A DNA stretch of 32,000 nt from Candidatus Hermodarchaeota archaeon (GTDB lineage: Archaea > Asgardarchaeota > Heimdallarchaeia > Hodarchaeales > Hodarchaeaceae): positions 60,001 to 92,000 of the forward strand of contig JBHLKY010000009.1 in the NCBI GenBank assembly GCA_048886185.1. The letters are read 5' to 3'. Shown here piece by piece: positions 1 to 25,848 of the stretch. The translations under genes were made by a program, and so were the position numbers. Under the pieces are notes generated by a model that saw only the letters and a list, made by a program, of their open reading frames with translations, was not told where the DNA came from and did no database searches. Numbering within the stretch: position 1 is the stretch's first letter; the number at the start of each line of letters is the position of its first letter.

Positions 1-807
1 GCCTGTACAGTGATCATCTGTAACAAAAGTTGCTCCTAAATCTTCAACCATTGATATAAATTCAGTATCATCATCTTCAGAACCCAAAATCATCAATCTC
101 TCACCTGGAGCCTTAATATTTCTTGAAGGAAGCTCTTGAAGCAGTAATTCCAGAGCTCGATTGTGTTCCTTTTTATCAGTCATTTGACTCGAAACAACCA
201 TATACATTGCTTCAAGGCCTGTCAGAGGTGGATTTGCACCCTTTCTAAGATCATAAACTTGCTGTATAAGCCGTCTGTTTGTGTTCATGAGCTCGATTCC
301 TCGTTTAAGATCATCATCAGTAATGGGTCGGCCTATCCATTTTTCTACGGAAGCCTTGAATTGAACTAGTTCCTCTCGTAAATAGGGGATAGCACGAGGA
401 CTTTGAACATGCATTGGATGGGGTAAATAATAGCTATAATCGGTCGGGATATGAATATCCCAGCTAGTGAATGCTTGTCTGATATGAAGGCAGCTCTGAG
501 CGATCATTATCCCATCAAGATAATCAAAACGTCCTTTTAAACCCTGTGCTAAGCAGTCACGACAAAAAGGGCAAAACATAGCAAAAATATGTGGTTCAGT
601 AACATCTTGCGGTTCATGACTCCCTAGAATGCGAACAGGAAGGATATCTGCAGCATATAATATTTCTTCAGGGACATAGGTACAAAAGTACCCCATTACT
701 TTACCTCCAGTACGCTTTTTCCATGTCATTGCGTAGTCATGTCGGTTCTTGTACCAATCCTTAAATTGGTCAAACAGGCCTGATTTTTCTTTTTGTACAA
801 GTTCCAT
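1..807 (-). CDS. bzdN: Benzoyl-CoA reductase, bzd (Azoarcus)-type, subunit N (BcrC/2-hydroxyacyl-CoA dehydratase-like); 3' end runs off the window start
   Basis: Manual translation of the minus strand from ATG 807 (AGGTG RBS upstream) is open to base 1: MELVQKEKSGLFDQFKDWYKNRHDYAMTWKKRTGGKVMGYFCTYVPEEILYAADILPVRILGSHEPQDVTEPHIFAMFCPFCRDCLAQGLKGRFDYLDGIMIAQSCLHIRQAFTSWDIH...LMILGSEDDDTEFISMVEDLGATFVTDDHCTG. The FCTYVPEE, CPFCRDCLAQGL and SCLHIRQ motifs match BzdN as I know it. Not in the ORF track because the stop is outside the window. Confidence 0.9.
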   Translation of the reverse strand, partial: MELVQKEKSGLFDQFKDWYKNRHDYAMTWKKRTGGKVMGYFCTYVPEEILYAADILPVRILGSHEPQDVTEPHIFAMFCPFCRDCLAQGLKGRFDYLDGIMIAQSCLHIRQAFTSWDIHIPTDYSYYLPHPMHVQSPRAIPYLREELVQFKASVEKWIGRPITDDDLKRGIELMNTNRRLIQQVYDLRKGANPPLTGLEAMYMVVSSQMTDKKEHNRALELLLQELPSRNIKAPGERLMILGSEDDDTEFISMVEDLGATFVTDDHCTG

Positions 808-837
808 CAATTTGAACACCTTTCAATGTTTGATTCT

Positions 838-4332: not shown

Positions 4333-4333
4333 A

Positions 4334-4816
4334 ATGCTGAAGATATTATTTGTTGATCCAGAAAAATGTACAGGATGCAAAATCTGTGAAAGTGTGTGTT
4401 CCATTCATCAGGAAAAGGTTCTTAATCCCGTTCGAGCTAGAATCCATGTTATAAAATGGGATAACTCCGGTATATACATTCCTATGATTTGTCAGCAATG
4501 TGAGACACCAATTTGTGAATCGGTGTGTCCTATGCGTGCCATACATAGAGATGAGAATAAGGCTCTCATTATTGATTATAATGCATGTGTTGGGTGTAAA
4601 TTATGTGTTACCTTTTGTCCTTTTGGTGGCGTAGGAATAGACAATAAAGGCAAAGTTATCAAGTGTGATCTATGTAATGGTGAACCTCAGTGTGTCAAGA
4701 GGTGTGAACCTAATGCATTACAGTATATTGAAGCAACTTCAATCAATATAAGAAAAAGAAGAGCTGCTGCTGAAAAATTCTCCGAATTATTTAAGAAAAT
4801 ATTGATAGCCACGTAA
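4334..4816 (+). CDS. 4x[4Fe-4S] polyferredoxin electron-transfer subunit (AorA/DmsB/CooF-like)
   Basis: CTGCKICESVC, CQQCETPICESVCP, CVGCKLCVTFCPFG, KCDLCNGEPQCVKRC. Starts 1 nt after the AOR stop. Confidence 0.92.
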   Translation: MLKILFVDPEKCTGCKICESVCSIHQEKVLNPVRARIHVIKWDNSGIYIPMICQQCETPICESVCPMRAIHRDENKALIIDYNACVGCKLCVTFCPFGGVGIDNKGKVIKCDLCNGEPQCVKRCEPNALQYIEATSINIRKRRAAAEKFSELFKKILIAT

Positions 4817-8925: not shown

Positions 8926-10461
8926 TCAAAGATACATTGCTGCTTCTATTATTTCAGCTATATCTTTAATTTCTAGCGGTATAGATTTCTTTCGTGCAGT
9001 AATGTAGAAATTCATTTGACACTGAGGACAAGCAGTCGTCAAGAGATCCACATTAACTGAAGAAAAGTCTTCCTTTAATCTCATATGAGCAGAATTCATG
9101 CTTACATTATGGTTGTATGTCCAAAGACCTCCTCCTCCACCACAACAACGCGATTTATTCCTGTTAAAAGGCATTTCAACTAGTTTTAGTTCTGGTATGG
9201 CTTTCAAAACATTCCGTGGAGCATCAAACACATTACTGTGTCGGCCTAAGGAACAGGGGTCATGATAAGTTATCTTCTGTTTTAACTCCCTTAGTTCTAT
9301 CTGGCCATTCTTAATCATTTTTTCAAGGAATTGAGTTGAATGAAATGTTTTACAGGGAACAGAAACATCAAGGATCTCAGGATATAACCTTGTAAAAGTA
9401 TAATAACATCCTGCACACGGTGTAATTACTGAATCAGCTTTAGTTTTTTCAATTCTATTGATAAGCTCATTTGCAGCTTGTTTTGCTTCATCCCATAACC
9501 CTGAAGCAAGTAAAACATAGCCACAACACCCTTCATCTTTTCCTAATGTAGTAAAATTTTGTTTTGTATTAGTTAAGATATTAAAGAAAGCTCTAGCTGT
9601 ATTTGGGGTTCGATTCGCAACCACACAGCCAATGAAATAGAGATGATCAGCGTGTTTTGGAAGTTTTGTTATAGGGACATTCTTAGTCCAAGCAAGTCGT
9701 CGCTCTATAGGAACAGCGCTAGGATCTCCAAATTCTAAGATATTATTTGCAGTGGAATAAAATACTTCTGGAGCCATGTTATTTTCGACAATATGCCGTC
9801 TCATATGAACAATTGCCTCATGAAGATCTGATTTTTGAAAACATTCTCCAAAACAGCGTCCACACTTACTACAAGTATATAAAATATCAGTAATTTTGTT
9901 TGTAAGATCCAGCTCTCCTTTCATAACTCCTTTAATCAATAATCCTCTGCCTCTGGCAGAATAACTTTCGATTCCGTTAAAAAAAGGAGTTACAGTACAA
10001 TAATCACTACATATAGAAGATTGGAGGCAGGTGTTTCCGAATTTTTGTAGAAACAGTGTTTGTACAGCTAAAGCGAAATTTCGATAGGTTCCATGGCTAA
10101 TTCGAAGAAGTTTAAACAAATTGTTATGTAAATCTGATTTTTCTCGATTCTTCGTGATCTTATTATCTGGTGTGGGAATTTTTACATCATCTAACAGAAT
10201 TATTATGTTCGAGCTTGTGAAAGTAGAAGATTGATGATTGCCTCTTTGAATTAATGTTACATTCTCTTTATCAGCTGTTTCTAAAACTTTTTTTTTCTGA
10301 TCCGCTGAATATACTTTAACCACAATATCAGGCATTGGATAAGCCTGATCCATGAAAATTTGTTCAAAGGAATAAACGTATCGGTCTTCTGAGTCGGTAA
10401 GGACTTGAATTTTTGATGAAATCTGTTTTAGTTGTTCAATCAATATCTTCTGAAGCACCAT
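8926..10461 (-). CDS. Fe-S oxidoreductase (GlpC/HdrD-like): ferredoxin-like domain plus two CCG domains, with a degenerate FAD-binding-like N-terminus
   Basis: CSKCGRCFGEC, YFIGC, EGCCG, PCAGC, YHDPCSLGR, RCCGGGGG, ACPQC. Confidence 0.88.
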   Translation of the reverse strand: MVLQKILIEQLKQISSKIQVLTDSEDRYVYSFEQIFMDQAYPMPDIVVKVYSADQKKKVLETADKENVTLIQRGNHQSSTFTSSNIIILLDDVKIPTPDNKITKNREKSDLHNNLFKLLRISHGTYRNFALAVQTLFLQKFGNTCLQSSICSDYCTVTPFFNGIESYSARGRGLLIKGVMKGELDLTNKITDILYTCSKCGRCFGECFQKSDLHEAIVHMRRHIVENNMAPEVFYSTANNILEFGDPSAVPIERRLAWTKNVPITKLPKHADHLYFIGCVVANRTPNTARAFFNILTNTKQNFTTLGKDEGCCGYVLLASGLWDEAKQAANELINRIEKTKADSVITPCAGCYYTFTRLYPEILDVSVPCKTFHSTQFLEKMIKNGQIELRELKQKITYHDPCSLGRHSNVFDAPRNVLKAIPELKLVEMPFNRNKSRCCGGGGGLWTYNHNVSMNSAHMRLKEDFSSVNVDLLTTACPQCQMNFYITARKKSIPLEIKDIAEIIEAAMYL

Positions 10462-10638: not shown

Positions 10639-11406
10639 ATGGTAGATGATCTAATTCAAGTTGAGAAAAGTAATAATATTGGAAAAATAACATTTAACAA
10701 TGGAGACTGGAATATTTTAAATATTGCAATGATGAAGCAGATTAATGAAGCACTTGAGGGCTTTGTTAATGACCAATCTCTTAAAGCAGTCGTTATTGAC
10801 CACACTGGAAGATCATTTTCAGCAGGAGTCGATGTGGGTGAGCATATGGGTGATTTAGCTCCCAAAATGCTGAAAGAATTTCATACTATGTTTAAAAAGC
10901 TCAACCGATTGAATTGTCCAACAATTGCCAGTGTTAAGGGAGCTGCTCTCGGTGGGGGTTGCGAAGTGGCAATATTTTGTGACATTGTCCTTGCGTCCGA
11001 AAAAGCGAAGTTTGGCCAACCCGAAATAAAAGTAGGAGTCTTTCCACCTGTATCAGTAATCATATTTCCATTTCTCACTGGTAGCAAGAAAGCTTACGAA
11101 CTTCTGCTTCAAGGCGAAACTATCAGTGCAAATGAGGCACATAGTCTCGGTTTAGTCAATCATGTTTTTCCAGTTGAGGCATATGAATATGAATTTAACC
11201 AATTTCTTGAGAGATTTAGCAAATTAAGTACAGTTGTATTGCACCATACCAAAAAAGCGATTCGATTAGGAATGGCTGACAAATTCGATTCTCAAATCGA
11301 TAAAGTTGAACAATATTACCTAAATGAGCTCATGAAAACATATGACGCAAATGAGGGACTACAGGCGTTTGTTGAAAAACGATCTCCTAAATGGGAGAAT
11401 CGGTAA
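10639..11406 (+). CDS. dch: Crotonase-family enoyl-CoA hydratase, probably cyclohexa-1,5-diene-1-carbonyl-CoA hydratase
   Basis: FSAGVDVGEH, ALGGGCE, GQPEIKVGVFPP and the C-terminal VEQYYLNELMKTYDANEGLQAFVEKRSPKWENR, which closely resembles characterised Dch. The benzoyl-CoA context supports the call. Confidence 0.78.
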   Translation: MVDDLIQVEKSNNIGKITFNNGDWNILNIAMMKQINEALEGFVNDQSLKAVVIDHTGRSFSAGVDVGEHMGDLAPKMLKEFHTMFKKLNRLNCPTIASVKGAALGGGCEVAIFCDIVLASEKAKFGQPEIKVGVFPPVSVIIFPFLTGSKKAYELLLQGETISANEAHSLGLVNHVFPVEAYEYEFNQFLERFSKLSTVVLHHTKKAIRLGMADKFDSQIDKVEQYYLNELMKTYDANEGLQAFVEKRSPKWENR

Positions 11407-11468: not shown

Positions 11469-12515
11469 ATGAAAGCGGCTGTTTTTGAAAAAGTAGAAAC
11501 CCCGATGAAAATTGATGAAAATTATCCTTCTCCTGATATCACTGGGAAGTCAGGGCAAGTAATACTAAACATTGAGGCGTGTGGTGTTTGTCACACTGAT
11601 TTAGGATTTCTAGACCATGGTGTTCCAACAGGAAAAGCTCCACCATTGATTTTAGGGCATGAAATGTCAGGAATAGTAAGTGAGATGAGTGATGATGTTA
11701 CTTCCTTCAAACAAGGCGACCATGTTCTTGTTCCTGCTGTGATATCTTGTGGTAATTGTTTCTATTGCCGAACTGGACGCGAAAATATCTGTTCAAATCA
11801 GACATTTTTTGGCAGCAATGTTGATGGAGGTTTTGCACAGGAGATAATGGTTCCAGCTAAAGATATCTTTCATCTTCCTTCCGAAATTCCCTTAGAAGAA
11901 GGGTGTATCATTTCAGATGCTGTATCAACTCCTTATCATGCTGTTAAGAATCGGGGCCAGGTAAGACCAGGTGATTGGGCTGTTGTGATTGGATGTGGCG
12001 GAATAGGATTAAATGTTGTACAAAATATTAAAGCAGCTGGTGGATTGCCCATTGCTCTTGATATTATACCTAAGAAATTGGAAGTTGCTGAACGACTTGG
12101 AGCCGTTGAAGTTATTTTAACAAAAGATTTAGATAAAAGAGATATTGTTAGTAAAATAAGAAAGATAACTGGTGGAGGAGCAGATGTCGCTTTTGAAGCA
12201 ATAGGACACCCTGCAACTTTTGCTCAGGCTTTCGATAGTCTGAGAAAAGGAGGAAGACTGGTAGCAGTTGGTTATTCTCCGAAGCGATGGGATGGTTTTA
12301 ATATTGGGAGAGTAATGTTTTATGAAATGGAATTAGTAGGAAGTTTAGGTTGTCGTACTGTAGATTATCCACGCATTATTGAGTTGGTTAAAAACAAAAC
12401 TTTAGTTGTCGAACCTTTAGTAACAGGAAAATACCCTCTCTCTAAAATAAATGAAGCTTTTGATGTCATGCGGCGTGGTGAGGGTATTCGTACAGTTATA
12501 TTATGTCAAAAGTAA
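11469..12515 (+). CDS. had: Zn-dependent MDR dehydrogenase, probably 6-hydroxycyclohex-1-ene-1-carbonyl-CoA dehydrogenase
   Basis: CGVCHTDL, GHE, CGNCFYCRTGRENIC, GCGGIG, GSLGC. Directly follows dch. Confidence 0.72.
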   Translation: MKAAVFEKVETPMKIDENYPSPDITGKSGQVILNIEACGVCHTDLGFLDHGVPTGKAPPLILGHEMSGIVSEMSDDVTSFKQGDHVLVPAVISCGNCFYCRTGRENICSNQTFFGSNVDGGFAQEIMVPAKDIFHLPSEIPLEEGCIISDAVSTPYHAVKNRGQVRPGDWAVVIGCGGIGLNVVQNIKAAGGLPIALDIIPKKLEVAERLGAVEVILTKDLDKRDIVSKIRKITGGGADVAFEAIGHPATFAQAFDSLRKGGRLVAVGYSPKRWDGFNIGRVMFYEMELVGSLGCRTVDYPRIIELVKNKTLVVEPLVTGKYPLSKINEAFDVMRRGEGIRTVILCQK

Positions 12516-12557: not shown

Positions 12558-13700
12558 ATGAAAGTAGGTATTATCGGTATTGGACACAGTAGATTTGGAA
12601 GACGTGACGATGTGACAGTCCAAGAGCTTGCATTTGAGCCTTTTGTAGAAGCTTTAAATGATGCAGAAATTCAACGACAAGATATTGATGCGACAATTAT
12701 TGGAGCCTCACCTGTCTATATGACACAACGAAGTATTGCGGGACCTATCACTGAATATCTTGGTTTAAACCCACAACCTGTTTGGTTAACAGAGGCAGCT
12801 TGCAGCAGTTCTGCAGTAGCTTTGCGAACTGCATATGCCTTAATTTCTTCAAGAATGCACGAAATAGTATTGGTTTTAGGTGTGCAGAAGATGCTAGAAA
12901 ATCCAACATCAGAAGTCCTGAAGATTATGGGACGTAGTGGAGATGTTCAGTGGGAAGCTCCCTATGGGACAACTTTTGCTAATTACTATGCAATGTATGC
13001 GAACTCCCATATGGCAAAATATGGTACTACATCAGAACAACTTGCTGCTGTGGCTGTTAAAAATCATCATTATGGGTCAATGAACCCGCTAGCAATGTTT
13101 CAAAAGGAGATTAACATACAAACAGTTTTAGAATCAAGGATCATTGCCTCTCCACTGCATCTTTATGATTGTTGTGCTAATGCTGATGGTTCTGCTGCTC
13201 TTATTGTTGTGAATGAGGAAAAAGCTAAACAACTGTCTGATGCACCAATTTGGATTTCTGGTTTAGGTGCCGCCACTGCACCTTTCTCTCTTCTAACTCG
13301 TCCTGAACTAGCAACTTTATCCAGTGCTGTTGAGGCCTCACGAATGGCTTATGATCAGGCAAAAATTAACTCAGGTGATATAGATGTTGCAGAAGTTCAT
13401 GATTGCTTTACGATTGCTGAAATCATGGCATATGAGGATTTAGGATTCACAGAAAGAGGGAAAGGAGGAGAATTTGTAGAGGAAGCTTATGTTGGTGGAA
13501 AGATTCCAGTTAACGTCGATGGTGGACTGAAAGCTAAGGGACATCCTGTTGGAGCTACTGGTTGTTCTCAGGTTGTTGGGATCGTCAAACAACTTCGTGG
13601 AGACGCAGGAAAAAGTCAAGTCGATGGCGCTGAGATTGGATTGACACATAATGTAGGTGGACATGGTCAATACTGTGTAGTACATATTTTTTCTAAGTGA
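12558..13700 (+). CDS. Archaeal/SCP2-type thiolase
   Basis: EAACSSSAVA (catalytic Cys), EVHDCFT, GGLKAKGHPVGATG, HNVGG. Confidence 0.92.
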   Translation: MKVGIIGIGHSRFGRRDDVTVQELAFEPFVEALNDAEIQRQDIDATIIGASPVYMTQRSIAGPITEYLGLNPQPVWLTEAACSSSAVALRTAYALISSRMHEIVLVLGVQKMLENPTSEVLKIMGRSGDVQWEAPYGTTFANYYAMYANSHMAKYGTTSEQLAAVAVKNHHYGSMNPLAMFQKEINIQTVLESRIIASPLHLYDCCANADGSAALIVVNEEKAKQLSDAPIWISGLGAATAPFSLLTRPELATLSSAVEASRMAYDQAKINSGDIDVAEVHDCFTIAEIMAYEDLGFTERGKGGEFVEEAYVGGKIPVNVDGGLKAKGHPVGATGCSQVVGIVKQLRGDAGKSQVDGAEIGLTHNVGGHGQYCVVHIFSK

Positions 13701-13711
13701 GGTGCGAAACA

Positions 13712-14923
13712 ATGAAGCAATTTGGGTACAAAGATTATATTTCTCAATCAAAGATTGGCGCACGCTTTCTGAAAGCTTTGAGAGAAGGAAGATTAGAGGG
13801 AACCAAATGTAATAAATGTTCTACCCTTTATTATCCTCCTAGAGCTAATTGTAAAGAATGTCTTACCGATAAATTTATAGAACCCGTAGAATTTTCCGGA
13901 GAAGGGAAAATTTTATCTTTCTCTGAAGTTCATGTTCCTCCCGCTGGTTTTGAGCGTTTTGCTCCGTACACAGTTACAGTTATTGATTTAAAGGAAGGCG
14001 GGAGATTAGTAGCTTGGGTAGATGACGTTACGGAACCACTTAAGATTGGTGAGGATGTCTTGGTTAAGCCAGAGATTGTTGAGGGTGATAGGGTGATTTA
14101 TAGGGTTCTGAGAGGAGAAGAAATATCTGTCCTCTTTGAAGAGATTTCTGTGACGAAAGAGGCTTTAGTTAAACCAAAAAGATTGCTGGGAAAAGTGGCT
14201 ATTGTCACAGGAGCAGGGAAAGGAATTGGTAGAGAAATTGCTTTGGAATATGCGAGAGAGGGAGCCAAGGTTGTAGTTGCAGCGAGGACACAATCAGATA
14301 TTGATTCCCTAGTAGCAGAGATTTCAGAATTAAGGAGCGAAGCTTATGCTATTCCCTGTGATGTTTCTAAGGTTGAAGATGTACAACGCTTGGTTACAAG
14401 AGCACTAAATAAATTTCAAAGGATAGACATTCTCGTAAACAATGCTGGTATCTCTCGAAGTGCTTTAATTTCCAAAATGTCGGATGAACTGTGGAATTCA
14501 GTTATTAACGTTAATTTGACAGGCACATTCAATTGTGTTCGGGCGATATCTTCTCATTTCATGGAGAAAAGACCTCTCGGTGGAAAAATCATAAATTTTA
14601 CATCTACAGCTGCAAAGTACGGTAATCTAGGTCAAGCTGCATATGCTGCATCCAAATGGGGAATTATTGCATTTTCAAAAACCGCGGCCCGAGAATTAGC
14701 TCGTTATAAAGTCAATGTTAATTGTATAATGCCAGGATACATTGAAACAGCAATGACTGCAGATACTCCCTCTGTTTACAAGGAACAAACCATTGCTCAA
14801 ATTCCCCAAATGCGAATTGGCTATCCAACGGATGTAGCAAAAGTAGCAGTGTTCCTAGCGTCAGAAGAATCTGATTACATGACAGGTGGAGTGGTTCAAG
14901 TCGATGGTGGATTAAGAATGTGA
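13712..14923 (+). CDS. DUF35 (Zn-ribbon + OB-fold) fused to a FabG-like short-chain dehydrogenase
   Basis: N-terminal CNKCSTLYYPPRANCKEC...GKILSFSEVHVPP...APY; C-terminal TGAGKGIG, NNAG, YAASK, PGYIETAMT, VDGG. ATG 13712 after GAGGTG. Confidence 0.9.
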   Translation: MKQFGYKDYISQSKIGARFLKALREGRLEGTKCNKCSTLYYPPRANCKECLTDKFIEPVEFSGEGKILSFSEVHVPPAGFERFAPYTVTVIDLKEGGRLVAWVDDVTEPLKIGEDVLVKPEIVEGDRVIYRVLRGEEISVLFEEISVTKEALVKPKRLLGKVAIVTGAGKGIGREIALEYAREGAKVVVAARTQSDIDSLVAEISELRSEAYAIPCDVSKVEDVQRLVTRALNKFQRIDILVNNAGISRSALISKMSDELWNSVINVNLTGTFNCVRAISSHFMEKRPLGGKIINFTSTAAKYGNLGQAAYAASKWGIIAFSKTAARELARYKVNVNCIMPGYIETAMTADTPSVYKEQTIAQIPQMRIGYPTDVAKVAVFLASEESDYMTGGVVQVDGGLRM

Positions 14924-14935
14924 GTAATGTTCCCA

Positions 14936-15361
14936 TTACAGAGTTACTCGTGACACCAGTTGTATCGAGAGATATTTTATTCCTTGAATAGCACGAAACT
15001 TCTTTACCAATGATCGAATATTTATTGCTTCATCACTAACAATAAGATTCTCTAAACACTCATTTGATTGAATGTGGTGATGATAGGAGTACGAGAGATT
15101 CAAATCATGTTGAGCTTCTATAAATTGGGAGATTGTAGCTAAATCATGGTGATTATAAACAACAGATATAATTACTGTTATTTTTACTGAATCATGTATA
15201 GTCTCCAGTCCTTTTTCTGACTCAAAGAAATTTTGGAGAGCATCTCGTATCATCTGTGATTTATTCTGGTATCCAAATTCTTTTACCTTAGTAGATATTA
15301 GCTCTTTAAACTCTGGATCACATGAAAATGTAATTGTTTCACGTACGCCTCTTCCTGCCAT
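14936..15361 (-). CDS. nikR: Nickel-responsive regulator (RHH + ACT-like)
   Basis: RHH N-terminus TITFSCD...KSQMIRDAL; QH and HHHIQSNEC fit the NikR His/His-x-His-x5-Cys Ni site. Confidence 0.82.
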   Translation of the reverse strand: MAGRGVRETITFSCDPEFKELISTKVKEFGYQNKSQMIRDALQNFFESEKGLETIHDSVKITVIISVVYNHHDLATISQFIEAQHDLNLSYSYHHHIQSNECLENLIVSDEAINIRSLVKKFRAIQGIKYLSIQLVSRVTL

Positions 15362-15385
15362 TAAAATCCCTTTCTTGGTTAATAA

Positions 15386-16159
15386 TTAGTTTATTTTGAA
15401 TTCTTGTTGATAAAATTCTTCAAATGAAGAAAAATCACCTTTTATCTGCCCTTCTTTAAGTAACACAATTCTATCAGCAATTTTCATCATTTCAAAATCC
15501 TGTGAAATAACTATAACTGTTCTTTTTTTTCTAAATGATTCAATTATTGATACCATTTTGGGTTTAGACCAGGGATCAATACCAATGGTTGGTTCATCTA
15601 GCACAATTACCTCTGGTTCCATTGCTAACATCCCCGCAAAAGCTACTTTTTTTTTCTCCCCAAAAGATAAGTTAAAAGTTATTCTATCTCGTAGATGAGT
15701 GATATTGACTTCTTCTAATACTCTCTCCACTCTTTCTTTCACGTCACTTTCAGGAAGTTTCATATTTCTAGGGCCAAAAGCGATGTCATCATATACTTTA
15801 GGATAGAATATTTGCTCATCTGGATTTTGAAATACCAATCCAACTGATTTTTGAACTAATTTTCTATTTTTCCGAGTAATAGAATTCCCTAAAACAATTA
15901 CTTCTCCCTCTTGAGGTAGAGTTAAACCATTAAAGTGTTTCATCAAAGTTGTTTTTCCAGATCCATTGGGCCCAGCAATAACCGTTAAGGCATTTTTAGC
16001 AAACTTTACTGAAATGTCACTTAATACTAGAGGCTCTTTCTTAACGTAACGGAAAGACAAATTATGCACTTCAATGATACTATCTGACAAAAATTTCTCA
16101 TTATTTTCCTTTATGATTATCATTTTAGTAACCACAGACTCTTTATTCGAAATCACCAA
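15386..16159 (-). CDS. cbiO: ECF transporter ATPase (CbiO/NikO)
   Basis: GPNGSGKTT, VFQNPDEQ, LSFGEKKK, LDEP. Confidence 0.92.
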   Translation of the reverse strand: MVISNKESVVTKMIIIKENNEKFLSDSIIEVHNLSFRYVKKEPLVLSDISVKFAKNALTVIAGPNGSGKTTLMKHFNGLTLPQEGEVIVLGNSITRKNRKLVQKSVGLVFQNPDEQIFYPKVYDDIAFGPRNMKLPESDVKERVERVLEEVNITHLRDRITFNLSFGEKKKVAFAGMLAMEPEVIVLDEPTIGIDPWSKPKMVSIIESFRKKRTVIVISQDFEMMKIADRIVLLKEGQIKGDFSSFEEFYQQEFKIN

Positions 16160-16941
16160 TCCAAGCTGACTATCATAATTAATAGGGTAAGAATCAGGAT
16201 TATCGTAAGAAAAATGATTCCATTTGATCTCCAGGGTATTCTAGGGTGTGGAATTTTTCCTGAAAATCCTCTTGCGGAAAGAGTGGCTGAAATATGTTCA
16301 GCTCTTTTGAATGATCGTGCTAATGCTGAACCAATAATGTTTCCTGTAATTTTCAAGGAATTAAAATTTAAAAACAGTTTTTGACCATAAAAACGGTTTG
16401 ATCTGGCTTCTAGAACTCGTTTAAACTCTTCTTCCATGAGGAAGAAAGATCTATAAGTTAGAAAGGTCAAATTAGTTAAAAAACTAGGTAAAAACAAATC
16501 ATTCAAACCGTAAATTGTCTCAAAAAATGTTTCCTCTGAATTTATCATTGTTAAAACAAAGAATACGATTAATAAGCTTCGGGCTCCTGAAAAAATTGCA
16601 AAAGAAACATTAGTATGCGTTGTAGTATATAATACAGTCTTATACACTGTTATAGAAGGATTAAAAGAAAGAAATGATATTACAGTCAGAGAAAGAATTA
16701 TAGGTGTCGCTAAGATACTATATTTCAACATTCTTCTTCTTGGTTTGAATACTAGTAAAAATATTAAGAAAATCAGAAAGAACCAAAAAAGCTGTTGTAG
16801 ATTTACTATTAGGGAACATGCAAGAACAACAATAAATGTAGCTAATATCTTACTCCGAACATCGACTAGCTGGCTTTTTTCTTCTTCAAAAGGATAATGA
16901 GTGTGTGATTGCTGATTGTGTATATCCTTTCCCTCTATCAA
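16153..16941 (-). CDS. cbiQ: ECF transmembrane T component (CbiQ/NikQ)
   Basis: DVRSKI, TM helices, ARS and ARGF (Ala-Arg-X) motifs. Confidence 0.85.
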   Translation of the reverse strand: MIEGKDIHNQQSHTHYPFEEEKSQLVDVRSKILATFIVVLACSLIVNLQQLFWFFLIFLIFLLVFKPRRRMLKYSILATPIILSLTVISFLSFNPSITVYKTVLYTTTHTNVSFAIFSGARSLLIVFFVLTMINSEETFFETIYGLNDLFLPSFLTNLTFLTYRSFFLMEEEFKRVLEARSNRFYGQKLFLNFNSLKITGNIIGSALARSFKRAEHISATLSARGFSGKIPHPRIPWRSNGIIFLTIILILTLLIMIVSLDW

Positions 16942-16963
16942 AGAATGGTCGTATTAACAAATG

Positions 16964-17278
16964 TTAATTGGAAGTTTCAGTTGATTTTTTGTGTCGTACA
17001 ATAGCGATTGGAATAAGTAAGACTCCCATTACAAATAATATTCCTATAAGACCTGAAAAAATTATAGATAATTGTTCATTGCCTATCAATTGGAAAAGTA
17101 GGGAGTTTTTTGACCCATAATCACTAAGTATACCTAAATCAAATACGTTTCCTTCAGATGCATAATCATCAGCAGCACTTTCAAGGCCATCTGGATTGGG
17201 ATCTGCAAAAGGGGCTAATAGAAGAAAAATCGTCAATATAGTAATAACTCCAATTGTCAACTTCGTTTTTGATTTCAT
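16964..17278 (-). CDS. PDGLE-domain accessory membrane component (NikN-like)
   Basis: NPDGLES motif flanked by two TM segments, lying between the M and Q genes. Confidence 0.85.
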   Translation of the reverse strand: MKSKTKLTIGVITILTIFLLLAPFADPNPDGLESAADDYASEGNVFDLGILSDYGSKNSLLFQLIGNEQLSIIFSGLIGILFVMGVLLIPIAIVRHKKSTETSN

Positions 17279-17282
17279 AAAA

Positions 17283-17969
17283 TCATCTCTTTGTGTTTGA
17301 GATTTTAGGAAATGGTTTTGTTACCGCCAGAAAGACGTTCATTTCAATTGTATTGAAGTATATCACAATGAAAGTTGTAATAAAGCCTTCAGCAATCCCA
17401 ATTAACGTGTGATAGAAAAGAATAGTTGGTAATGTGACCGTAAAAGGGATTGTTGCTAGATTATTAAAAATAGGTATTCCTATTTCTATAGCAGCAAAGA
17501 ATGAACCCATTAAAACAGATAAAAAAGCACCAAGAAAGACACCACCATAATAGCGTATCTTATGGGCTTCAGGCTCAATATTAAGCATTAATTGTCGGAT
17601 TATAATGTATCCAACTAAAACTCCAACTATAGCCATATTGAAAATGTTAGCACCAAGAGCTATTATTCCTCCATCGGCAAAAAGAAGAGCTTGGATTAAG
17701 AGAACAATTGTAATTACTAAAATTCCCCCCCATGGACCCACAATGGAGGCAGCTAATGCTCCACCCAGTAAATGCCCAGAAGTTCCCCCAATAATCGGAA
17801 AATTTAACATCTGAGCTGCAAAGATGGTTCCTCCTAATACAGCCATATAAGTGATTCTAGTTTCGTCAAAATCTCGCGTTTTATATAGACATAGTACTAA
17901 TACAGATACCGTTATAATCCATGTTACAAGTAAGAATGCAGGATCCACCCAACCATCAGGAATATGCAT
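17283..17969 (-). CDS. cbiM: ECF S component CbiM/NikM
   Basis: MHIPDG N-terminus (NikM-type), FAAQMLNFPI, GTSGHLLGG, GANIFNM, HTLIGIAEG. Confidence 0.92.
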   Translation of the reverse strand: MHIPDGWVDPAFLLVTWIITVSVLVLCLYKTRDFDETRITYMAVLGGTIFAAQMLNFPIIGGTSGHLLGGALAASIVGPWGGILVITIVLLIQALLFADGGIIALGANIFNMAIVGVLVGYIIIRQLMLNIEPEAHKIRYYGGVFLGAFLSVLMGSFFAAIEIGIPIFNNLATIPFTVTLPTILFYHTLIGIAEGFITTFIVIYFNTIEMNVFLAVTKPFPKISNTKR

Positions 17970-21097: not shown

Positions 21098-21381
21098 GAA
21101 GGCACCATAGAATGTTAGAACTAATTTTTTATGATAATTGTTAAATTTAAGCAAATTTAGTAAAAAATCACTTGTTTATTAAAAATTCCTTTTAATAATG
21201 GGCTGTATTGATCTCTTTGATATGCCTTTTTAGTTTAAGATTTAGTAGGTGGTTCTAAAAGCTCATTAATGATTGAATTTCTTCGCACTTTACGTAAGCC
21301 TCTAGGATAAAAACCAAATATATTCGTGAAACGATTCATAATAGGCTTTTTAATAAAAAAATTCAAAAAATGGTGTATCTT

Positions 21382-22575
21382 ATGGCTTTTGAGTTCGACG
21401 AAGAGCAAGAAATGTTCAGAGAAAGTGTAAGAGAATTTTGTGATAGGAAAATTGTCCCCCTTGGTCTCACAATAGAGGAAACCAAGGAGATTCCGAAGGA
21501 AATAAAGAAAGGTATGGCCGAGCTCGGTCTTCTTGCGTGTACAGCTTCCCCAGATTACGGAGGTTCTGGCTTGAATGCTGTAAGCGCAGGTGTTATAGCA
21601 GAAGAACTGGGTAGAGCGGATCCAACGGGCTCAATTCCCGTTTTCTATCTCGTTCAAGCATCTTGGGGTTTTTTACTAAACAAATATGGTACTGAAGAAG
21701 CTAAAAAAGAAATATTTCCAAAAGTAGTTAGTGGAGACTGGTTTCTTGGAATTGCTACGACTGAAGCAGATGCTGGTTCGGATGTCGTTGGTACTTCAAT
21801 GACAATAAAGAAAGTATCTGACGGATTTATTGTTAATGGTGAAAAGATGTATATCAGTGGGGTGCGGGAAGCTGCAACTGGTGGTGGTGGCCATGTTACA
21901 ATTGCACATCAGACACCAGAGCGTGGTAGTAGAGGTATGACAGTCTTCTATTTCCCCTTAACCGCTGAAGGAGTCACACCTACTTATATTTCAGACCTAG
22001 GTAGAGAGGGAATCTCTTGTGGTGGTTTTACTGCTGACAATGTGAAGATTCCCAGTCATTATATCATTGGAGAAGAAAATCGTGGTTTTAATATCATTCA
22101 TGAAGGCTATGAGTTTGCTAGAGCATTAATCGCAGTAATTTGTGCATCATCGGGTTTAAAATCCCTAGAAAATGGTATGAATTATATAAAAGAAAGAAAA
22201 GTCTTTGGAACTGCTATTGGAAAGTTTGAAGAAATTAATTTCAGATTAGCAGAGCACTATACAAGGCTTTGTGCTCTAAAAGATATGGGTTATAAGGCTT
22301 TATGGCTTATTGACAGAGAACAGGAAGGAAAAGCAGGTAGATTTGAAGTTAGTAAAGCTGTTGCCATGGCCAAAATGTTTGCCTCTGATTGGGCCTGTAA
22401 TGCAATAAATGATGTCATGCAGTGGCAAGGCGCATTCGGCTATTCAAGAGAATGCACTGATCAGGCTGCATGGAGAGCTGTCAGATCATTCGCGCTTGCA
22501 GAAGGATCTAGAGAAGTTATGAAAATGATTGTAGCCAGAGAACTCCTTGGTAAAGACTTTATCGCATATAAATGA
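21382..22575 (+). CDS. Acyl-CoA dehydrogenase
   Basis: TTEADAGSD, NGEKMYISG, ERKVFG, QWQGAFGY, EGSREVMK. ATG 21382 after GGTG. Confidence 0.9.
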   Translation: MAFEFDEEQEMFRESVREFCDRKIVPLGLTIEETKEIPKEIKKGMAELGLLACTASPDYGGSGLNAVSAGVIAEELGRADPTGSIPVFYLVQASWGFLLNKYGTEEAKKEIFPKVVSGDWFLGIATTEADAGSDVVGTSMTIKKVSDGFIVNGEKMYISGVREAATGGGGHVTIAHQTPERGSRGMTVFYFPLTAEGVTPTYISDLGREGISCGGFTADNVKIPSHYIIGEENRGFNIIHEGYEFARALIAVICASSGLKSLENGMNYIKERKVFGTAIGKFEEINFRLAEHYTRLCALKDMGYKALWLIDREQEGKAGRFEVSKAVAMAKMFASDWACNAINDVMQWQGAFGYSRECTDQAAWRAVRSFALAEGSREVMKMIVARELLGKDFIAYK

Positions 22576-22617
22576 AGTTCACTTTCCTTTACTCATAGTT
22601 TAAGAAAAAAACACAAC

Positions 22618-23412
22618 GTGATAATTGTGAGATTCATAGTTTGTGTAAAACAGGTTCCTGATACTACAGAGGTAAGAGTCGACCCTAAAACCAACACATT
22701 GATCAGAGAAGGGGTTCCATGCATATTAAATCCTTTCGATCAATTTGCGCTTGAAGAGGCAGTCAGAATAAAAAAAGAGGGGGATGAAATTGTTGTTATT
22801 TCGATGGGTCCTCCTCAAGCAAAAAAAGAGCTGATGAAATGTCTTGCATTAGGTGCTGACAAGGCAATATTGTTAAGTGATAGAGTCCTTGCAGGGGCAG
22901 ACACTTGGGCTACATCTTACACTCTTGCTCAGGCTGTCAAAAAGATTGGTGACTTCGATATAATATTTTGTGGATATCAAGCTATCGATGGAGATACAGC
23001 TCAAGTCGGGCCTGAACTTGCAGCGCAACTTGGAATACCTCAAATCACATATATTGAAAGTGTTGAAGAATTAAGCAAAAAAAAATTGATTGCAAAATCT
23101 CAAACAGATGATGGTTACAAAATAGTGGAAGTTAAACTTCCAGTTCTTTTGACAGGAATAACCCCATCTGGATTTATACCTAGAAGTCCACCATTACCTA
23201 ATATAATAAAAGCAAAGCAAAAACCGTTCTCCACTTGGAACGTAGAGGATCTTGGGGGTGAAAAAGACAAGTACGGTTTGGGGGGGTCATTGACACAGGT
23301 CATAAAAGTCTATGCTCCGCCCACACGCAAGAAAGGTGCTATAATAACTGATGAACCAAATGTTGCAGTTGAGAAATTGATGGAAAAGTTAACCGAAGAT
23401 AAGGTGATTTGA
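22618..23412 (+). CDS. etfB: Electron transfer flavoprotein beta subunit
   Basis: VCVKQVPD, NPFD, GADTWATS, QAIDGDTAQVGP. Confidence 0.94.
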   Translation: MIIVRFIVCVKQVPDTTEVRVDPKTNTLIREGVPCILNPFDQFALEEAVRIKKEGDEIVVISMGPPQAKKELMKCLALGADKAILLSDRVLAGADTWATSYTLAQAVKKIGDFDIIFCGYQAIDGDTAQVGPELAAQLGIPQITYIESVEELSKKKLIAKSQTDDGYKIVEVKLPVLLTGITPSGFIPRSPPLPNIIKAKQKPFSTWNVEDLGGEKDKYGLGGSLTQVIKVYAPPTRKKGAIITDEPNVAVEKLMEKLTEDKVI

Positions 23413-24599
23413 TGATAACTGTCAAGGAAGAACTTTGTAATCACTGTGGAAGCTGTGTTAAAGCATGCCCTTTCGGTGCTATAAAAATTATTAATCAAAT
23501 TACTGCCATTGGAGAAGAATGTACACTCTGTGGAGCTTGTGCTCAGGTTTGCAAACCCTGTGCTATAGAAATTGAAAAGAAAGAGATAAAAGATATTGAC
23601 TTTTCCCGCTACAAAGATATTTGGGTTTTTACTGAGATTAAAGACGAAAAAATAAGAAATGTAACATTTGAGTTACTTGGAAAAGCAAGAAAATTGGCAG
23701 ATGAACTAGAACAGGACGTTTGCGCGGTTATTCTTGGAAAAGATGTCAAAAAATTATGTAAAGATCTCTCTGTTTATGGTGCAGACAGAATATTCGTTGC
23801 TGAAGATGAAATTCTAAAGAATTACTACACAGATCCTTATACCTCTGTTCTTGTCGGATTGATATTGAAGTATAAACCAAATATTGTAATTTATCCAGCT
23901 ACAAAAATTGGTAGAGATTTAGCACCCAGGGTCGCTGCAACCTTGGAAGTGGGTCTTACAGCAGATTGTACTGGATTATCTATACAGAATGGAAGATTAC
24001 TTCAATCCAGACCTGCTTTCGGTGGTAACATAATGGCTGACATAATTTCTGTGACTAGACCTCAAATGGCTACGATTAGACCAAACGTGATGAAAAAGAG
24101 TCCTCCAAACTACGATAGAGTCACTGAAATCCTAGAGATACCTGTAAAAATAGATCTTAAGGGAATTAGAACAGTGATAAAAGAAGTTATCAGCACTAAA
24201 TCCTATGTTACAGTTCCACTTGATGAAGCAGAAATTATTGTCTCAGGTGGTAGAGGAGTTGGTAGTAAAGAGAATTTCAAAATCATTGAGGATCTAGCAA
24301 ATGTACTTAATGCATCAGTAGGAGCAAGTCGCTCTGCAGTTGATTTGGGCTGGAAACCAAAATCATTTCAGGTTGGACAAAGTGGGACTACAGTTTCTCC
24401 GAAAATATACATTGCGTGTGGCATAGCAGGGAAAATTCAGCATCTTGTCGGAATGTCTGGATCTGATACGATAATTGCAATAAATAAAGACCCGGAAGCT
24501 CCGATATTTAATGTGGCTGATTATGGTATTGTTGGTGATCTAAATAAAGTTGTACCACTATTGACAGAAGCATTAAGGAAGGAATTTGCTTCACGATGA
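23412..24599 (+). CDS. etfA: Electron transfer flavoprotein alpha subunit with N-terminal 2x[4Fe-4S] ferredoxin domain
   Basis: CNHCGSCVKACP, CTLCGACAQVC, then GLTADC, RPAFGG, SGGRG, GASRSAVD, QVGQSG, QHLVGM, INKDPEAPIF. Confidence 0.94.
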   Translation: MITVKEELCNHCGSCVKACPFGAIKIINQITAIGEECTLCGACAQVCKPCAIEIEKKEIKDIDFSRYKDIWVFTEIKDEKIRNVTFELLGKARKLADELEQDVCAVILGKDVKKLCKDLSVYGADRIFVAEDEILKNYYTDPYTSVLVGLILKYKPNIVIYPATKIGRDLAPRVAATLEVGLTADCTGLSIQNGRLLQSRPAFGGNIMADIISVTRPQMATIRPNVMKKSPPNYDRVTEILEIPVKIDLKGIRTVIKEVISTKSYVTVPLDEAEIIVSGGRGVGSKENFKIIEDLANVLNASVGASRSAVDLGWKPKSFQVGQSGTTVSPKIYIACGIAGKIQHLVGMSGSDTIIAINKDPEAPIFNVADYGIVGDLNKVVPLLTEALRKEFASR

Positions 24600-24660
24600 A
24601 ATCTTCTAGAAACATATTTTTCGAATTTAATCTAGTCAAATTAAATTGAGGTGGAACCTT

Positions 24661-25848
24661 ATGGATTTTGAATTATCTGATGAACATGAGATGCTAAGAT
24701 CGTCAGTTAGGGAATTTGTTGATCGTGAAATAATACCCAAGATTAAAGAATATGATAGAAATGAAGAATTTCTCCCCCCTCTGGATATAATGGGAAAGAT
24801 GGGGTTGTTAGGTATATGTTTTCCCGAAAAGTATGGAGGTGCGGGAATGGATTACCTCGCACTAGCAATAGCATGTGAAGAGCTTGAAAGAGGGGATATA
24901 TCACTCCGAACTGTCCTCTCTGTACACGTTGCTTTGACTTCCTGTACGATTTATCAATGGGGCAATACTAAACAAAAAGAAAAGTATTTCATACCTCAAA
25001 ATCATGGGAGAATGATTGGAACGACTGCAATGACTGAACCATCATGTGGCTCAGATGTGGCAAATGTTACAACCCGTGCAGAGAAACAAGGTAGCCATTA
25101 TATTGTTTCTGGTCAAAAAACTTGGATCTCTCTAGCTGATATCGCCGATAATTTTCTTGTTCTGGCACGAACGGGAGAATCTGGTTATAAGGGGCTTTCT
25201 TTATTTATTATTGAACGAGATTTTACTGGTGTAACCACTACTTCTTTGCATCATAAATTAGGGACTCGTGCAGGAAACACAGGAGAGCTTTTTCTCGAAA
25301 AAGTGGAAGTTCCTGAAGAAAATCTTCTTGGACATGAGGGTGAGGGTTTCAAGATTTGCATGTCAGCACTGGATAATGGTCGTTTTACTGTCGCTGCAGG
25401 TGCAGTAGGGACAATTAAAGCAGCTCTTGAATCGTCAGTAAAATATTGTCATGAAAGAAAGGCGTTTGGTCAAGAAATTGGGAGATTTCAGTTGATTCAA
25501 GAACATCTAGCTCATATGCAAGCTGCTTATGACGCTTCCCAATTATTAGTGTATAAAGTGGCATGGATGAAAAATCAAGGTAAACGAAATACACGTGAAA
25601 CAAGTATGGCAAAGTGGTTTGCCACCACCCATGCTCTTGATGCAGCCAATAGAGCTATTCAAATACACGGTGCATATGGGTATACCAGTGATTATCCCGT
25701 TGAAAGGTTATGGCGGAATGTACGGGGAGCTTGCATTTATGAAGGAACAAACGAGATTCAAAAGTTGATTCAAGGATCTTACATTATGGGGTATCGAAAG
25801 TATAGGCCTCTACGTTGCGAGATGCCTCCTTATGACCCATTAAGCTAA
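24661..25848 (+). CDS. Acyl-CoA dehydrogenase (glutaryl-CoA dehydrogenase-like by context)
   Basis: TEPSCGSD, GQKTWIS, IQIHGAYGY, YEGTNEIQ. GAGGTGG RBS. Substrate is inferred. Confidence 0.88.
   Translation: MDFELSDEHEMLRSSVREFVDREIIPKIKEYDRNEEFLPPLDIMGKMGLLGICFPEKYGGAGMDYLALAIACEELERGDISLRTVLSVHVALTSCTIYQWGNTKQKEKYFIPQNHGRMIGTTAMTEPSCGSDVANVTTRAEKQGSHYIVSGQKTWISLADIADNFLVLARTGESGYKGLSLFIIERDFTGVTTTSLHHKLGTRAGNTGELFLEKVEVPEENLLGHEGEGFKICMSALDNGRFTVAAGAVGTIKAALESSVKYCHERKAFGQEIGRFQLIQEHLAHMQAAYDASQLLVYKVAWMKNQGKRNTRETSMAKWFATTHALDAANRAIQIHGAYGYTSDYPVERLWRNVRGACIYEGTNEIQKLIQGSYIMGYRKYRPLRCEMPPYDPLS

Follow-up and report, generated by a model that had tools for sequence, protein, structure and literature searches.

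What is the function of a protein that carries a complete DUF35 domain and a short-chain dehydrogenase/reductase (SDR) on a single chain, and whose gene lies immediately behind that of a thiolase? The question is raised by positions 12,558 to 14,923 of a 32,000-nucleotide stretch of DNA (the window; C9:60001-92000, contig JBHLKY010000009.1) from the 4.84-Mb, 96% complete genome of a Candidatus Hermodarchaeota archaeon. We propose that the thiolase and the DUF35::SDR fusion probably work as a single complex in the lower part of the anaerobic benzoyl-CoA pathway, turning 3-hydroxypimeloyl-CoA into glutaryl-CoA and acetyl-CoA. Homology, gene context and co-occurrence are the grounds from which we infer the physical complex, its substrate, its cofactor and the channelling. 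The genes and domains concerned are as follows.

12558..13700, plus strand: archaeal-type (SCP2-like) thiolase, 380 aa (Pfam Thiolase_N/Thiolase_C_1; NCBIfam PRK06064, 480 bits against a cut-off of 420)
13712..14923, plus strand: DUF35::SDR fusion gene, 403 aa plus stop (Pfam, alignment, AlphaFold2)
13712..14122, plus strand: DUF35 domain, residues 1-137 (Zn ribbon C33, C36, C47, C50 plus OB fold)
14123..14182, plus strand: linker of ~20 residues (alignment A1, columns ~160-190; predicted local distance difference test score, pLDDT)
14183..14920, plus strand: classical FabG-like SDR domain, residues 158-403, with an NADP-type signature (adh_short, 215 bits)

A single open reading frame (ORF) in which a full DUF35 domain is joined by a short linker to an intact FabG-like SDR, 11 nt past the thiolase stop, had been described in an earlier reading of the DNA letters (the sequence-only reading), and ORFs, Pfam matches and coordinates agree with that description. 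The spacer separates the thiolase TGA (13698-13700) from the fusion ATG (13712), with GAGGTG located ~7 nt before the ATG; an in-frame GTG at 13697 is unsupported as a start, as the homologues in the alignment all begin with MK.FGY. Pfam matched zf-ChsH2 (PF12172; residues 21-54, E 5.6e-10), OB_ChsH2_C (PF01796; residues 59-116, E 8.4e-16) and adh_short (residues 161-352, E 5.9e-64) to the 403-aa product, all above the gathering cut-off. The N-terminus has the build of the DUF35 class, a rubredoxin-like Zn ribbon with four ligands and then an OB fold within ~130 aa, and it aligns end to end with stand-alone DUF35 proteins of 133-142 aa; its matches in the PDB were 6esq_E (the best, E 3.7e-17), the DUF35 domain of ChsH2 (6ok1_B) and BbsA (7pxp_A). 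An alignment-fed AlphaFold2 model of the fusion (mean pLDDT 78) displayed two confident domains, the DUF35 part being made of beta strands with a pLDDT of roughly 65-90, and linker residues 139-153 scoring below 50. Across a 29-member alignment the linker was variable in sequence and nearly constant in length, with abundant acidic and Lys residues.

A search of 5.8 billion proteins, with relatives counted as protein clusters at 90% identity, returned ~70 full-length relatives of the fusion (385-425 aa, 51-89% identity), all of the same three-domain architecture, and every named one carries an Asgard archaeon label; under ~50% identity, only stand-alone FabG-like SDRs were found, mostly bacterial. 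The same fused family was the only one retrieved when the DUF35 part was used as a query among proteins of 221-706 aa. HMMER with the DUF35 part against 1.84 billion representatives yielded one fused cluster, the rest being mainly stand-alone proteins 100-180 aa in length, the closest of them 45% identical, plus two longer matches with duplicated DUF35 modules and no SDR. The ESM Atlas held plain SDR clusters only, with no fused cluster of at least 50 members. Since the architecture is conserved in ~70 clusters, the fusion is far beyond chance, and the combination of domains that the sequence-only reading had picked out has proved to be conserved. A stop or frameshift between the domains, which would have spoken against that reading, was found neither in this genome nor in 15 other species genomes carrying the fusion, and both domains and the junction stay in frame across the 29-member alignment (52-89% identity). 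Invariant in this alignment are the Zn-ribbon cysteines C33, C36 and C47 and, in the SDR part, TGAG[KR]GIG, A191-R192-T193, N268, S298, Y311 and K315. The fourth Zn ligand, C50, is replaced by Asp (CTKND...) in one fused subgroup (P0054-P0060, some labelled Kariarchaeaceae), and in other fused subgroups the Cys of this column is displaced by one position.

In a tree of SDR sequences the fused domains formed one clade (SH-aLRT, an approximate likelihood ratio test, 96); their monophyly is compatible with a single fusion event. A genome of the sister family (G078) has thiolase, DUF35 and SDR as three genes with overlapping stop and start codons, and its stand-alone SDR is NAD-type. Derivation of the fusion from adjacent genes of this kind was considered and set aside: the stand-alone SDRs of G078 and G291 are long unresolved branches, and direct ancestry is unsupported. 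Two further sequences, P0072 and P0073 (64-66% identity), were set aside as possible stand-alone SDR orthologues; they may be truncated gene calls, and P0073 starts within the linker of a fused relative. The G078 set (G078:C54:1-14000) is preceded by a GNAT gene and by genes for an aldehyde:ferredoxin oxidoreductase (AOR)-family enzyme and a ferredoxin, and followed by Bzd-like genes just 25-41% identical to BzdNOPQ, which may encode a different ring- or acyl-CoA-reducing or dehydrating system.

Gene context of the thiolase and the fusion

The closest PDB relatives of the thiolase were 7yvy, 6esq_A (from the Methanothermococcus thermolithotrophicus complex) and BbsB (7pxp_C). In the alignment its nucleophile, Cys82, falls on the 7yvy Cys, and the HDCF motif is retained. 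The DUF35-encoding gene directly downstream gives the thiolase-DUF35 adjacency typical of such pairs; the order thiolase then fusion was seen in 11 related loci, with the 11-nt spacing kept. At three places in the genome a DUF35-containing gene comes after a thiolase gene. The two further pairs lie on contigs C26 (6943-9198) and C4; in one, a 117-aa DUF35 gene comes after a 241-aa ORF without a Pfam match, and in the other a 221-aa DUF35 gene is followed by an acetyl-CoA-synthetase-like ligase.

By analogy with characterised systems, the DUF35 domain is predicted to dock on the thiolase. Across the genus the thiolase is more conserved (84-92% identity) than the fusion (69-89%), which would fit a DUF35 domain that serves the SDR itself, for example by binding CoA or by oligomerisation, with no thiolase docking and an adjacency that is merely operonic. 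However, all DUF35 proteins characterised so far bind a thiolase-fold partner, the thiolase has no other adjacent DUF35 gene whereas such archaeal thiolases commonly have one as a partner, and the spacing between the two genes is conserved; we consider this explanation very unlikely.

The two genes are the last of four closely spaced plus-strand genes (crotonase, Zn-type medium-chain dehydrogenase/reductase (MDR), thiolase, DUF35::SDR). The other features of the locus are listed here; Etf stands for electron-transfer flavoprotein, ACAD for acyl-CoA dehydrogenase and ECH for enoyl-CoA hydratase.

10639..11406, plus strand: Dch-like crotonase (ECH) (top NCBIfam match TIGR03189, ~187 bits, cut-off 292)
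11469..12515, plus strand: Had-like Zn-type MDR dehydrogenase (top NCBIfam match TIGR03201, 223 bits, cut-off 339)
8926..10461, minus strand: HdrD-like CCG/Fe-S oxidoreductase, divergent neighbour (Pfam CCG twice plus Fer4_8)
1..819, minus strand: BzdN (benzoyl-CoA reductase), N-terminal portion (the incomplete protein scores 327 bits with TIGR03190)
21370..25848, plus strand: ACAD, EtfB, EtfA (with N-terminal ferredoxin domain), ACAD (Pfam)

No other protein of the genome comes close to the crotonase and the MDR in its match to the Dch and Had models, the next best ones reaching 101 and 117 bits, respectively. Directly upstream of the window lie true bzd-type benzoyl-CoA reductase genes, with BzdO (696 bits, cut-off 449), BzdQ (410 bits, cut-off 380), a BzdP-like or second activase-type subunit and an 843-aa GltD-like Fe-S protein resembling BzdV. 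A true Oah, the ring-opening hydrolase, is encoded on the same contig 21 kb downstream of the operon (564 bits, cut-off 464), and the downstream part of the contig also holds a classical thiolase (beside Oah), an acyl-CoA ligase and a 3-hydroxybutyryl-CoA dehydrogenase (Hbd; 421 bits, cut-off 408). The ACAD-Etf unit matched best, though below cut-off in both cases, the NCBIfam models of the glutaryl-CoA dehydrogenase Acd and of cyclohexanecarboxyl-CoA dehydrogenase, and its genes are candidates for glutaryl-CoA or alicyclic acyl-CoA dehydrogenation. The thiolase/fusion pair is both linked to Bcr/Bzd, Dch, Had and Oah genes and found in the same genomes as these, the pattern expected of a member of the lower pathway. 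Asgard benzoyl-CoA clusters of this type have been published, with the steps after 3-hydroxypimelyl-CoA assigned to generic 'Hadh' and 'Fad' genes only (PMC8163825).

Other genes of the region were recorded as well. Among the genes that separate the operon from oah, 21 kb away, are a Ni/Co ECF-type uptake cassette (nikR-cbiO/Q/N/M, 14936-17969, minus strand, convergent to the fusion gene) and, further downstream, Rag/Gtr1-like GTPase genes and a giant surface protein. An AOR-family tungsto/molybdoenzyme and a 160-aa poly-ferredoxin are encoded at 2431-4816; at least two relatives have both genes beside the operon, and some Oah loci from metagenomes have them too. Their identification as BamBC was set aside, the sole sizeable match of the AOR being a generic aldehyde:ferredoxin oxidoreductase, far below cut-off.

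In the mechanism that we propose, the N-terminal DUF35 domain would dock on the thiolase, as stand-alone DUF35 proteins do, and the ~20-residue linker would hold the SDR active site beside that of the thiolase. The SDR would oxidise the Oah product 3-hydroxypimeloyl-CoA to 3-oxopimeloyl-CoA, probably with NADP+, and the thiolase would at once cleave the latter with CoA to glutaryl-CoA and acetyl-CoA. Because a 3-oxoacyl-CoA is energetically uphill from both sides, such proximity would keep its free concentration low and pull the unfavourable oxidation. As Hbd and the classical thiolase are available for the C4 round, the C7 round was assigned, also in view of the position in the pathway, to the thiolase/fusion pair.

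The opposite division of labour would have the pair convert 3-hydroxybutyryl-CoA via acetoacetyl-CoA to two acetyl-CoA, or serve both rounds, with Hbd and the classical thiolase taking 3-hydroxypimeloyl-CoA. The classical thiolase gene directly follows that of Oah, the thiolase of the pair is nearest to archaeal acetoacetyl-CoA thiolases, and the SDR resembles acetoacetyl-CoA reductases, all of which would suit this arrangement; Hbd, however, exceeds the cut-off of the 3-hydroxybutyryl-CoA dehydrogenase model, and many unrelated contigs have an SDR, a thiolase and a DUF35 gene, not Hbd, adjoining Oah (see below). We judge the opposite division unlikely.

Occurrence of the parts beside Oah

The fusion is carried by Ca. 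Hodarchaeum mangrovi FT_5_011 and Heimdallarchaeota B3_Heim, among others. Among 400 Asgard species genomes the fusion was found in 16, namely in 15 of the 22 genomes of the window's genus (its own included) and in one genome of another family (G397); a true Oah was likewise found in 16, again 15 of the genus and G397. Fusion and Oah occur together in 15 genomes. The only genome with the fusion alone is 89% complete and has it at a contig end, and the only one with Oah alone is 70% complete. The usual order in related loci, some of which end at contig edges, is the divergent HdrD-like gene (in the same position in most of the 11 loci) followed by ECH, MDR, thiolase and DUF35::SDR. In Ca. Hodarchaeum mangrovi these four genes are contiguous with oah, which directly follows the fusion, and with a thiolase II gene. 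G397 has the thiolase-fusion pair only (G397 C7:34000-50000; thiolase 84% and fusion 70% identical), as an isolated unit amid PIN, MtrH and PmbA/TldD genes; a true Oah and a true BzdO are encoded elsewhere in this genome. This suggests pathway transfer between Asgard lineages, or a binning artefact.

To see the same parts outside Asgard archaea, 80 metagenome contigs with Oah orthologues at 65-87% identity, unrelated to Asgard, were scanned with a DUF35 hidden Markov model (built on 143 proteins) and with the proteins of the window, the scan covering the flanks available on each contig. A DUF35 gene was present in the flank of 21 of the 80, a thiolase+DUF35 pair in 17 (mostly within ~1 kb of Oah) and a contiguous SDR-thiolase-DUF35 triad in 11, often with Dch-like and Had-like genes and on one contig with BzdNOPQ as well. 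When only contigs with at least 5 kb on each side of Oah were counted, the triad was found in 6 of 25. The triad loci span G+C contents of 33-65%. None of the 11 triads has a fused DUF35::SDR. The triad SDRs carry basic residues after beta-2 and are NADP-type; the marks of their subfamily are [IL][NT]YRKH[DE] after beta-2 and a C-terminal DGGQYI (DGGLRM in the fusion). An SDR with a thiolase/DUF35 pair thus recurs beside the ring-opening hydrolase in diverse anaerobes, and the Hodarchaeum lineage has the fused form. Judged by sequence and position, the triad SDRs are candidates for a general 3-hydroxypimeloyl-CoA dehydrogenase of anaerobes. In the literature searched, no description was found either of an SDR-thiolase-DUF35 module beside oah/bamA or of a DUF35::SDR fusion, and nothing of use turned up on bzdZ or on a connection between DUF35 and auxin.

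The sequence-only reading had put forward the conversion of 3-hydroxypimeloyl-CoA by a tethered dehydrogenase and thiolase as a plausible role; the bzdNOPQ...oah island, the co-occurrence with Oah and the unfused triads all lend support to this prediction.

Cofactor type and direction of the reaction

The SDR domain has the TGxxxGxG motif and the N-S-Y-K tetrad of a classical SDR (TGAGKGIG, N268, S298, Y311, K315). NCBIfam models of FabG and acetoacetyl-CoA reductases gave 200-277 bits on it, most of the equivalog models listed being below cut-off. Its scores lie below those set for a true FabG acting on substrates bound to acyl carrier protein (ACP) (NF004198, 277 against 296; TIGR01830, 270 against 298); the models passed were a FabG-named subfamily (NF009466, 231.6 against 222) and a glucose 1-dehydrogenase subfamily. 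The enzymes encoded in the operon and the island act on CoA esters.

According to a rule of the Kallberg/Persson type, a basic residue in the Gly motif and another after beta-2, with no acidic residue at the beta-2 end, point to NADP(H). This signature (K/R170 and R192, no acidic residue at the beta-2 end) is invariant among the fusions, and the NADH-dependent FabG 4nbu has Asp, Phe and Asn in place of A191, R192 and K170; it predicts that the fusion SDR uses NADP(H), a cofactor type that is unusual for a catabolic dehydrogenase. The Had-like MDR (11469-12515) has an Asp at its Rossmann beta-2 end (...IALD...), an NAD-type pattern read by eye. Since this pattern differs from the NADP-type one of the fused SDR, the two dehydrogenases of the operon probably use different cofactors. 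One possible explanation for the NADP type, offered as inference only, is that NADPH from the SDR could be used by the BzdV-like oxidoreductase to supply ferredoxin and, with it, the ring reductase.

An additional scenario is that the operon runs in the reductive direction, as an ACP-independent condensation-reduction unit like the archaeal fatty acid synthase of Sulfolobus acidocaldarius. Here the thiolase/DUF35 would condense an acyl-CoA with acetyl-CoA, the tethered NADPH-dependent ketoacyl-CoA reductase would pull the endergonic condensation, the crotonase would be the dehydratase and the MDR the enoyl-CoA reductase; in a variant, the pimeloyl branch would be reversed, from glutaryl-CoA and acetyl-CoA to 3-hydroxypimeloyl-CoA. 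Such a reversal takes place in Syntrophus when it makes cyclohexanecarboxylate. The invariant NADP-type signature, the FabG and acetoacetyl-CoA reductase models at the top of the SDR's matches, the binding of an NADPH-specific SDR by the S. acidocaldarius proteins and the fact that a single operon covers the four types of reaction in an elongation cycle speak for this scenario. Yet the operon sits in a bzd/oah island and co-occurs with Oah, and the fusion is missing from Asgard genomes without Oah, bar the one 89% complete genome; the MDR scores higher with Had (223 bits) than with archaeal acryloyl-CoA reductase (163 bits), and Dch is the nearest match of the crotonase; and the locus has no MaoC dehydratase, the genome's three being on contigs C7, C15 and C1. 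On this evidence we hold a reductive role to be rather improbable. The sequence-only reading had also allowed for a reverse, ACP-independent elongation; the NADP-type signature keeps that part of it alive, with less support from the context than the catabolic direction. A module for polyhydroxyalkanoate (PHA) precursors, by analogy with haloarchaeal PhaA alpha/beta and PhaB, was considered and rejected, no class III PHA synthase having been found in the 96% complete genome.

Several points weigh against a catabolic complex for 3-hydroxypimeloyl-CoA. The crotonase and the MDR do not reach the equivalog cut-offs of the TIGRFAM models of Dch and Had, and both the invariant NADP-type signature and the likeness to FabG and acetoacetyl-CoA reductases are more typical of reductive enzymes. 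The division of the C7 and C4 rounds between the two dehydrogenase/thiolase pairs was assigned by elimination only. The co-occurrence of fusion and Oah spans about two lineages of kin genomes, and is supporting evidence rather than statistical proof; in G397, moreover, the pair stands apart from the bzd genes. The triad SDRs belong to another subfamily (38-46% identity, different C-terminal motif), and are analogues of the fused SDR, not orthologues. Finally, the complex and its activities are predictions from sequence and context.

A wider form of the catabolic proposal, which we regard as tentative and on the whole doubtful, is that the fusion is the sequence-orphan 3-hydroxypimeloyl-CoA dehydrogenase (EC 1.1.1.259) within a channelling thiolase complex, that its NADPH refuels ring reduction, and that the triads are the general solution of anaerobes. 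Were all of this true, the complex could be, for example, an SDR tetramer whose four DUF35 arms clamp two thiolase dimers; the ATP-dependent ring reductase would get its reducing power back from this NADPH by way of the BzdV-like NADPH:ferredoxin oxidoreductase encoded next to bzdNOPQ, and the unfused triads adjoining oah/bamA would be a so far unrecognised general answer for the 3-hydroxypimeloyl-CoA step.

The catabolic proposal itself provides a concrete candidate for the 3-hydroxypimeloyl-CoA dehydrogenase of anaerobic benzoate degradation, which a 2022 curation of catabolic pathways lists as unknown, in the sense that no sequence had been linked to it (PMC9007349), and the unfused triads by oah/bamA are indicated as a likely general module. 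At least this thiolase/DUF35 pair looks catabolic, and a clearer view of acyl-CoA metabolism in Hodarchaeales helps to weigh claims of Asgard fatty acid synthesis drawn from counts of thiolase/DUF35 pairs. Hodarchaeales are the archaeal group currently placed nearest to the eukaryotes.

Comparison with known DUF35 and thiolase systems

Documented DUF35 adaptors recruit another enzyme to the thiolase-fold protein that they bind (6ESQ/6ET9, Sulfolobus ketothiolase (KT)/DUF35, ChsH2-DUF35/Ltp2, Shy/Sal, BbsAB, PhlABC). The nearest solved DUF35 structure, and one of the nearest solved thiolases, belong to the thiolase/HMG-CoA synthase/DUF35 complex of M. thermolithotrophicus (6ESQ/6ET9), in which DUF35 acts as the adaptor that brings the second enzyme to the thiolase, as is proposed here; its partner, however, is an unfused HMG-CoA synthase of isoprenoid synthesis, and the present operon has no HMG-CoA synthase gene.

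In S. acidocaldarius, KT/DUF35 binds an SDR ketoacyl-CoA reductase (NADPH-specific) and a MaoC dehydratase (bioRxiv 10.1101/2024.07.05.601840). In both systems the DUF35 gene comes straight after that of an archaeal thiolase, and both have an NADP-type classical SDR for the 3-oxoacyl/3-hydroxyacyl-CoA step, held on KT/DUF35 there and predicted to be so held here. In S. acidocaldarius the SDR is separate and encoded elsewhere in the cluster, a MaoC dehydratase is bound and the direction is synthetic, whereas in the present case a covalent link joins the SDR to DUF35, and the context is that of catabolic benzoyl-CoA genes; partners of the S. acidocaldarius type (MaoC dehydratase, MDR enoyl-CoA reductase) are not found at the locus. 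The preprint makes no mention of a DUF35::SDR fusion. A natural fusion is the strongest evidence that sequence can give for an SDR working attached to a thiolase/DUF35 core, and it backs the interaction reported biochemically in Sulfolobus from an independent lineage and pathway.

The principle of fusing a catabolic neighbouring-step enzyme to a DUF35 domain that docks on a thiolase fold is shared with ChsH1-ChsH2/Ltp2 and Shy/Sal (6OK1, 9MYR; PMC11321319, PMC12329534). There, a MaoC hydratase is N-terminal and DUF35 C-terminal, and the partner is a retro-aldolase in which thiolase residues have been repurposed; the present fusion begins with DUF35, its enzyme is an SDR and it has no MaoC domain, and the thiolase keeps Cys82 and HDCF. 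The BbsAB thiolase (BbsA being the DUF35 protein) and the BbsCD SDR of anaerobic toluene degradation (7PXP, 7PCS) share an operon and carry out successive steps of beta-oxidation, and the thiolase, DUF35 and SDR parts of the present pair all match Bbs structures. The Bbs enzymes, in contrast, are separate proteins for a benzylsuccinate-derived substrate, and the present thiolase gave just 187 bits with the BbsB model (cut-off 750). The unfused triads adjoining Oah have the same three parts, the same neighbour and an NADP-type SDR, and differ in being three proteins encoded in the order SDR-thiolase-DUF35, with an SDR of another subfamily. Taken together, ChsH2 and Shy are known cases of a DUF35-fused enzyme that docks on a thiolase fold, and Sulfolobus offers a non-covalent KT/DUF35-SDR assembly; the fusion described here extends the principle to an SDR.

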